From Enterobacter phage vB_Ecl_MII_001: 62,004 nt of DNA. Position 1 is the stretch's first letter, and each line of letters starts with the position of its first letter. Below are positions 48,183 through 48,609 of the stretch, one piece after another. A program made the translations under genes and the position numbers. Under the pieces are notes generated by a model. That model searched no databases. It saw nothing but the letters and a program-made list of their open reading frames with translations, and was not told where the DNA came from. The stretch is from the sequence record PQ039552.1. One strand, written 5' to 3'.

Positions 48183-48202
48183 TACTGTATGCATATACAG
48201 TA
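48183..48202. promoter_or_regulatory. LexA (SOS) box TACTGTATGCATATACAGTA
   Basis: Same as 1681-1700. Confidence 0.75.
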
Positions 48203-48219
48203 ACTATCGGAGGTGAGTT

Positions 48220-48609
48220 ATGGGATTCCCGAGTCCGGCTGCTGATTACGTTGAAAGTCGTCTGTCACTTGATGATGCGCTTATCCAGAAACCAGCCGCT
48301 ACGTACTACATGCGTGCTGGTGAGACTATCTACCGCTGCGGCATCATGAAAGATGCACTCCTTGTCATCGATTCGTCGCTTAAGCCATGTGACGGCTCGC
48401 TGCTTATCTGTGACTGCAACGGTGAGTTTAAAGTAAAGAGGTATCGCACATACCCGAAACCGCATCTTGAGAATGTGGCGAACGGGAGAAAGGAGAGGCT
48501 ACCTGGCAACGACGATGGCATTAGTGGGGCGCTACCAATATTCGGGGTAATCACGTACATCATCAACGATGCGCGTTCTGGTGATTTTGATGACTGCCCG
48601 GTGATGTGA
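48220..48609 (+). CDS. UmuD-prime-like (HumD-like) protein, ATG-start copy
   Basis: MGFPSPAADYVESRL... 129 aa. Confidence 0.7.
   Translation: MGFPSPAADYVESRLSLDDALIQKPAATYYMRAGETIYRCGIMKDALLVIDSSLKPCDGSLLICDCNGEFKVKRYRTYPKPHLENVANGRKERLPGNDDGISGALPIFGVITYIINDARSGDFDDCPVM

Follow-up and report, generated by a model that had tools for sequence, protein, structure and literature searches.

A HumD-family UmuD' analogue behind a predicted LexA operator, beside the attachment site of an Enterobacter phage

A phage-borne analogue of the processed mutagenesis protein UmuD' is known from bacteriophage P1, the only family member for which substitution for UmuD' in SOS mutagenesis is on record. The P1 record states that HumD "functionally complements E. 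coli UmuD'" and places, 19 nt upstream of humD, a "LexA binding site in the regulatory region of lxr and humD"; P1 HumD is presented as a functional UmuD' homologue facilitating SOS mutagenesis in a title quoted by PMC8460599, that of McLenigan et al. 1999. The family extends well beyond P1. Queried by tblastn with the protein described here, 93 phage records hold relatives, among them P1 and P7 (63% identity, gene called humD), N15 (gp26), phiKO2 (gp23), HK639 and HK140, as well as BTP1 and further Salmonella phages assigned to Lederbergvirus. At E <= 1e-10 a protein collection yields 430 cluster representatives, many of them named "HumD family translesion DNA polymerase"; at least 448 contigs of IMG/VR carry a HumD relative, as do 109 stretches, mainly from Enterobacterales, in a species-dereplicated genome set.

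The window analysed here is a stretch of 62,004 nt from Enterobacter phage vB_Ecl_MII_001 (PQ039552.1). Its gene at 48220-48609 is an ordinary, already annotated member of the known phage HumD family, in a genomic position that recurs elsewhere. The same protein sequence is already in GenBank from Enterobacter phage vB_Ecl_MII_003 (PQ039554) as "error-prone repair protein UmuD", the record giving sewage from Kenya as source and E. cloacae as host. From left to right the locus reads gtrA (minus strand), a 113-bp intergenic region, humD (plus strand), a hairpin, a tRNA-like fragment and a tyrosine integrase gene (minus strand), with the following features:

45376-48106, minus strand: gtrA-gtrB-gtrC, after a PHROG match (GtrC-like, 45376-46833) and the GenBank annotation of PQ039554
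47744-48106, minus strand: gtrA (Pfam GtrA_DPMS_TM), first gene of gtrA-gtrB-gtrC, divergent from humD
48159-48188, plus strand: putative humD promoter by inference, -35 TTGATC at 48159-48164, 18-nt spacer, -10 TACTGT at 48183-48188 within the LexA box
48161-48164 and 48174-48177, no strand: GATC pair, equivalent to GATC4 and GATC3 of the P22-type switch, at -33 and -46 from the predicted gtr start
48183-48202, no strand: predicted LexA operator (SOS box) TACTGTATGCATATACAGTA, a consensus match unique in the genome
48209-48213, plus strand: Shine-Dalgarno sequence GGAGG, 6 nt before the ATG, kept as cggaggtg in relatives
48220-48609 (stop codon included), plus strand: humD, encoding a 129-aa HumD-family UmuD' analogue
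48627-48656, no strand: hairpin of 12 pairs, terminator-like on the plus strand, across attP from int
48733-48777, plus strand: attP core region, a copy of the 3' 45 nt of tRNA-Arg(UCU) argU
48793-49956, minus strand: tyrosine integrase (Pfam Phage_integrase, E 4e-46)
1681-2106, plus strand: wrap-around duplicate of box and humD, in which a homopolymer at codon 4 is 1 nt short

The assignment of the protein is clear at several levels. The open 129-aa frame, whose product starts MGFPSPAADYVE, reaches 213.5 bits against the NCBIfam HumD equivalog NF051876 (cutoff 120) and covers residues 1-129 of the 129-position model, which, together with 63% identity to P1 HumD, bears out the P1-type UmuD' analogue proposed by an earlier, sequence-only reading of this DNA. 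The NCBIfam UmuD model NF007621 gives 86.4 bits, under its cutoff of 110, and the NCBIfam LexA model (cutoff 110.95) gives 19.3 bits in an alignment limited to residues 3-77. Pfam assigns Peptidase_S24 (PF00717), and the PHROGs label is "UmuD-like protein". When the PDB was searched with HMMER, the top matches were UmuD' (1umu_A, E 4.5e-18) and UmuD. Gly2 falls on residue 1 of UmuD', that is on UmuD Gly25, and Met1 on UmuD Cys24, so the protein begins at the Cys24/Gly25 cleavage site, without the N-terminal arm. The motif GETI pairs with GDSM of UmuD, placing Thr35 (codon 48322-48324) at the Ser60 position, and GEFKVKR pairs with GEFTVKK, placing Lys73 (codon 48436-48438) at the Lys97 position. 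The same pairing emerged from a MAFFT alignment that included K-12 UmuD, and the post-cleavage N-terminus, missing arm, substituted nucleophile and retained lysine had all been read correctly from the sequence.

The protein consists of the S24 domain alone; an N-terminal DNA-binding domain of the LexA/CI type is absent from its 129 aa. It departs from UmuD in precursor arm and Cys-Gly (or Ala-Gly) cleavage site, in the Ser60-Lys97 dyad, in score and in the umuC operon. That the gene travels without umuC had also been noted and is upheld by tblastn of the window with K-12 UmuC, which gave no homologue (best E 0.17 over 46 aa). The structural reading is based on the one usable AlphaFold model out of five (mean pLDDT 65.7), well-behaved in the core (pLDDT 74-84) and poor at the termini and in one loop. 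With this model Foldseek retrieved 1umu (UmuD') as best match (E 3e-6), followed by UmuD and then by the C-terminal domains of LexA and lambda CI; an S24/UmuD fold, the lack of which had been named as a finding that would sink the proposal, is thus present. Comparison with close relatives, 8-10% different in nucleotides and with unsaturated dS of 0.3-0.5, gave a dN/dS of 0.04-0.10, which indicates that humD is under purifying selection. A minus-strand ORF at 48330-48659 (109 aa; compare the annotation BTP1_017) was considered and rejected as coding, given the low dN/dS and the family match of the plus frame.

The box and humD occur twice in the window, and the second arrangement at 1681-2106 had been taken as a like locus. 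It is the same locus read twice, because window positions 1-15583 and 46499-62004 correspond end-to-end (97.8% identical, 156 gap openings). What the window contains is a single genome of ~46.5 kb and a terminal wrap-around of 15.5 kb, and the differences between the copies look like long-read indel noise: in copy 1 many genes are frameshifted, including gtrB, int and humD. A three-way alignment with copy 2 and PQ039554 locates the lesion of humD in copy 1 at codon 4 (CCC to CC), where the frame breaks, and shows copy 2 to be 100% identical to PQ039554. Against a real duplication, which was considered and rejected, stands the 15.5-kb end-to-end overlap with its indel-type differences. In the better copy as well, the genes for Sak4-, O- and DnaB-like proteins (55020-55340, 59023-59490 and 60255-60957) appear as partial profile matches or split overlapping ORFs, and between the N-like and CII-like genes there is no ORF of cI size (>=90 aa); both probably reflect residual sequencing indels.

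Described beforehand as a near-perfect SOS box, TACTGTATGCATATACAGTA has indeed 2 mismatches to the consensus TACTGTATATATATACAGTA and ends 17 nt before the humD ATG. Within one genome unit (15584-62004) no other 20-mer comes closer to the LexA consensus than 6 mismatches; for the core pattern CTGT-N8-ACAG the chance expectation is 0.81 per window. By the 20-mer mismatch scan the humD operator is the sole LexA-like site of the phage genome, which makes it unlikely that this phage encodes an antirepressor of the Gifsy or 186 type under LexA control. The promoter is probably the TTGATC/TACTGT pair. It is placed by analogy with the upstream region of umuDC because a sigma-70 consensus scan of 47900-48900 called no site; the K-12 umuDC upstream sequence can be read likewise, as TTGATC, 17 nt, TACTGT and box, and its spacing from box to ATG equals that at humD of the window.

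Downstream, humD is the last gene before the attachment site. The segment 48733-48777 aligns with K-12 argU from the anticodon loop to CCA and also with the annotated attP of phage epsilon34, in keeping with the placement next to attP that the earlier reading had given. As expected for an att fragment, neither ARAGORN on the whole window nor a permissive Rfam scan of 48550-48850 called a tRNA. From downstream of humD into int, the DNA is 82.6% identical to epsilon34. For the interval from gtrA to attP the epsilon34 record marks a terminator and CII-binding sites, in the stretch that aligns with the hairpin region of the window. Overlapping TTGC-N6-TTGC repeats lie in that region (48627-48660), between humD and attP, in a position like that of the lambda sib/tI retroregulation site. 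The phage combines a lambdoid early region (N-like, CII-like, O-like, DnaB-like) with genes for tail sheath, tape measure and baseplate, so that its earlier description as a "lambdoid/SfV-like serotype-converting phage" was a reasonable one.

How far the arrangement is typical was examined with 104 intact relatives (>=60% identity, ORF >=120 aa). Every one (104/104) has an upstream match to CTG-N10-CAG, a loose pattern with a background of 0.43 matches per kb. Where humD has no small upstream ORF, the match lies within 100 nt of the gene in 69 of 69 cases, typically at -37, -39 or -63. Where such an ORF is present (n=35), 33 relatives have a TACTG-type match ~275-305 nt upstream of humD, ahead of the ORF, and the other 2 have a match only inside it. 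A umuC gene within 4 kb of humD was found in 0 of the 104. The HumD family is thus one with a LexA-type box uniformly in front and umuC never nearby, and its typical place is at prophage ends, often with dinI, which encodes a RecA-filament binder and is paired with humD across a shared LexA box in 54 of the 104.

Several features of these neighbourhoods deserve mention. In other prophages humD usually has a divergent dinI as partner, across one or two LexA boxes. A conserved ORF of ~79 aa (HK140_027 type), belonging to no Pfam family, often precedes humD elsewhere, and an upstream ORF of that type also accompanies shorter HumD-like proteins (~107 aa) in Pantoea and Erwinia. HK140-type phages have an annotated attP overlapping the 3' end of humD (HK140 locus 3360-3506); E. 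coli prophages integrated at dacD finish on that same C-terminal part of humD (...DDYPLK); and Stx phage records carry a 3' fragment of humD (residues 73-128) at their extreme end. The attachment site itself may thus sit inside humD-derived sequence. Loci of the enterobacterial type were further met in assemblies labelled as Bacillota MAGs, as Chitinophagaceae and Puia MAGs and as Ca. Erwinia dacicola, the last on a contig 96% identical to the window and carrying gtrAB; these odd labels are probably due to contamination or mis-binning or, for Erwinia dacicola, to a shared prophage.

Among 122 family sequences, Met occupies the position of UmuD Cys24 in all 122 and the protein starts there in 118. 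The threonine in place of Ser60, which had been singled out as noteworthy, turns out to be the family norm: Thr is found in 87 of the 122, Ser in 31 (P1 included), Ala in 3 and Ile in 1. Ser or Thr is thus present in 118/122 and Lys at the Lys97 position likewise in 118/122, while the flanking positions 59 and 61 vary freely. The dyad is kept in proteins without a cleavage site of their own, and its conservation might reflect cleavage in trans or a structural role. Mutagenesis by UmuD' is not known to need the Ser-Lys dyad, so that a pure UmuD' role may not explain why the dyad is conserved.

The position at the gtr-att junction had been considered unusual, and here the evidence points the other way. 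The complete 113-bp unit, with the box between divergent gtrA and humD, is found again in BTP1, in the E. coli PI6 prophage (dacD site), in two viral contigs (L013 and L014) and in contigs of genomes that bear the labels Citrobacter, Franconibacter and 'Ca. Erwinia dacicola'; related units with humD adjacent to gtrA occur in Enterobacter contigs, the sequence upstream of humD in MG40 is that of BTP1, and for several cases in E. coli the label given by PGAP is 'HumD family translesion DNA polymerase | GtrA family protein'. The gtr operons of the P22 type are transcribed from a start 25 bp upstream of gtrA, and their phase variation needs the 115 bp preceding this start, in which GATC sites at -110, -97, -46 and -33 lie within OxyR half-sites (Broadbent 2010, PMC2909390). 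Phage SPN9CC has GATC at exactly these positions. The window keeps only the -46/-33 pair; GATC1/2 and the OxyR(A) half-site are gone. Homology with SPN9CC breaks off where the LexA box begins, at its first base, and is regained within the last 23 nt of humD, ~66 nt of SPN9CC that hold the distal GATC pair being replaced in the window by ~403 nt of box and humD. Judged from this alignment (window 48107-48219 and 48587-48640), the box-humD cassette replaces the distal half of a P22-type gtr phase-variation switch.

The replacement has a described precedent. In BTP1 the gtr-lacZ fusion proved uniformly ON, without phase variation, and a '365-nt insertion' upstream of gtrA abolishes phase variation (Kintz 2015, PMC4413052); BTP1 gtr is, moreover, highly expressed in most or many uninduced conditions (bioRxiv 787010). 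Sequence comparison suggests that the 365-nt insertion is a decayed box-humD cassette. By extension, gtr of the window phage is probably constitutive and not silenced by LexA at -52 to -71. More speculative is a set of wider roles, to which we give only slight weight: that the recurrent presence of the cassette serves to turn phase-variable gtr constitutive, that Dam methylation or OxyR, acting on the shared control region, might modulate humD, and that the dyad of HumD could act as a trans-protease on UmuD or another S24 substrate.

As a whole, we regard it as likely that the locus is a self-contained, LexA-controlled 'moron', comprising operator, promoter, ribosome binding site, humD and terminator, that is lodged between gtr and attP and supplies UmuD'. 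The gene, its family membership, the sequence and conservation of its operator, the lack of umuC and the purifying selection are the observations from which we infer LexA binding, SOS induction, partnership with UmuC and a benefit to phage or host. In an unstressed lysogen, host LexA would occupy the operator with the likely -10 element inside it, and humD would be off. DNA damage would activate RecA, LexA would cleave itself, and humD would be transcribed together with the SOS regulon of the host. The product would be UmuD' from its first residue (Met plus the Gly25 equivalent); starting where UmuD' starts, it would not need RecA-mediated cleavage. HumD would be expected to dimerise and, as does P1 HumD, to pair with host UmuC in a Pol V-type translesion polymerase, so that lesion bypass and SOS mutagenesis would come earlier than through the host's slow processing of UmuD.

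Other explanations have to be weighed against this one. HumD could tune the SOS response instead of serving as a polymerase subunit, forming heterodimers with UmuD or engaging RecA filaments or the beta clamp, and in this way shift the UmuD2C checkpoint or the timing of RecA-dependent cleavage at induction. The frequent pairing with dinI across a shared LexA box (54/104) suggests a combined module of that sort, and the lack of umuC near humD, in the window as in the relatives, fits as well; yet complementation of UmuD' in mutagenesis is on record for P1 HumD, and dinI is not a neighbour of humD in the window phage, so that we consider SOS tuning improbable here. An S24 protease acting in trans with a working Thr/Ser-Lys dyad, directed at host UmuD (intermolecularly), LexA or a phage repressor, would account for a dyad preserved in 118 of 122 sequences (Ser/Thr and Lys alike), with freely varying positions 59 and 61 beside the Ser/Thr. 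The conservation could, however, be structural, and no Ser-Lys dyad enzyme is known to employ Thr as nucleophile, which counts against the protease and makes it very unlikely.

Similarly remote is the idea that humD is a decaying passenger, roleless in the window phage and brought along with the gtr-att-int module by recombination. Its function is dispensable, since several relatives are pseudogenes with stops or frameshifts (BTP1, MG40 and APC_JM3.2), a point that also weighs against the favoured LexA-controlled supply of UmuD'; Sf101 and Stx phages retain fragments, and the module is mosaic, the cassette having a tailspike gene as neighbour in BTP1, in APC_JM3.2 and in the PI6 prophage of E. 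coli, whereas the window phage has a tail sheath. Against decay in the window phage itself stand the intact frame, the strong Shine-Dalgarno sequence, the intact operator and the dN/dS of 0.04-0.10 against relatives 8-10% different in nucleotides. Lastly, the box might act chiefly on gtr, which is transcribed divergently, and so tie glucosylation of the O antigen to SOS, humD being incidental. Its location would allow this, since the box occupies -52 to -71 relative to the predicted start of gtr and belongs to the shared control region of 113 bp. But in BTP1 the gtr operon with the same 113-bp unit is uniformly ON (PMC4413052) and highly expressed uninduced (bioRxiv 787010), and the box travels with humD where gtr is absent, as in P1, N15, HK639 and the dinI-linked loci. 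Regulation of gtr as the main role of the box is hardly credible and was rejected on account of the constitutive BTP1 operon.

Our study has importance in suggesting that a temperate Enterobacter phage carries what would be a standard SOS-inducible HumD cassette, whose lysogens may reach error-prone bypass faster. The relevance lies in mutation supply, for example under DNA-damaging antibiotics; on its own the locus has little significance.

Among known systems, humD of P1 (P1_gp103) is one of those close to the window humD. Both proteins have 129 aa, are 63% identical over their full length, start at the UmuD cleavage site and share the C-terminal tail INDARSG-FDDCPV; in front of both genes 17-19 nt separate a LexA box from the ATG, and umuC is not alongside. 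They differ at the Ser60 position (Ser in P1, Thr in the window) and in surroundings: in P1 the box is common to divergent lxr, and phd-doc follows humD, whereas in the window gtrA is divergent and attP lies downstream. The UmuD-like proteins of N15 (gp26), phiKO2 (gp23), HK639 and HK140, at 61-67% identity to the window HumD, are likewise pre-truncated, with no umuC beside their genes. A LexA-type box lies shortly before the start codon in N15, phiKO2 and HK639, and phiKO2 contains a 20-mer identical to that of the window beside the lexA binding site annotated in its record. In contrast to the window, phiKO2 and HK140 have dinI upstream on the opposite strand, HK140-type loci have a small extra ORF before humD, and in the linear-plasmid prophages partition genes follow humD where the window has attP.

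BTP1, MG40 and E. coli prophages inserted at dacD, such as that of strain PI6, share the 113-bp unit of the window down to detail, with the GATC pair at -46/-33 relative to the predicted start of gtr, a LexA box that occupies -37 to -18 relative to the ATG of humD, and the ribosome binding site cggaggtg. However, humD is a pseudogene in BTP1 and MG40 (in-frame stop, frameshifts) and intact in the window; a tailspike gene adjoins the module in BTP1 and MG40 (both Lederbergvirus) and in the PI6 prophage, whereas the window phage has tail sheath, tape measure and baseplate genes; and the E. coli gtrA-humD prophages use an attachment site other than that of the window phage. With E. coli UmuD/UmuD' the window HumD has in common the S24 fold, ~36% identity over 119 residues and the lysine at position 97, and the operator-to-ATG geometry matches that of umuDC. 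Relative to UmuD it is without the 24-residue arm and its cleavage site, has Thr for Ser60 and no umuC as operon partner, and carries a C-terminal extension of 13 residues.
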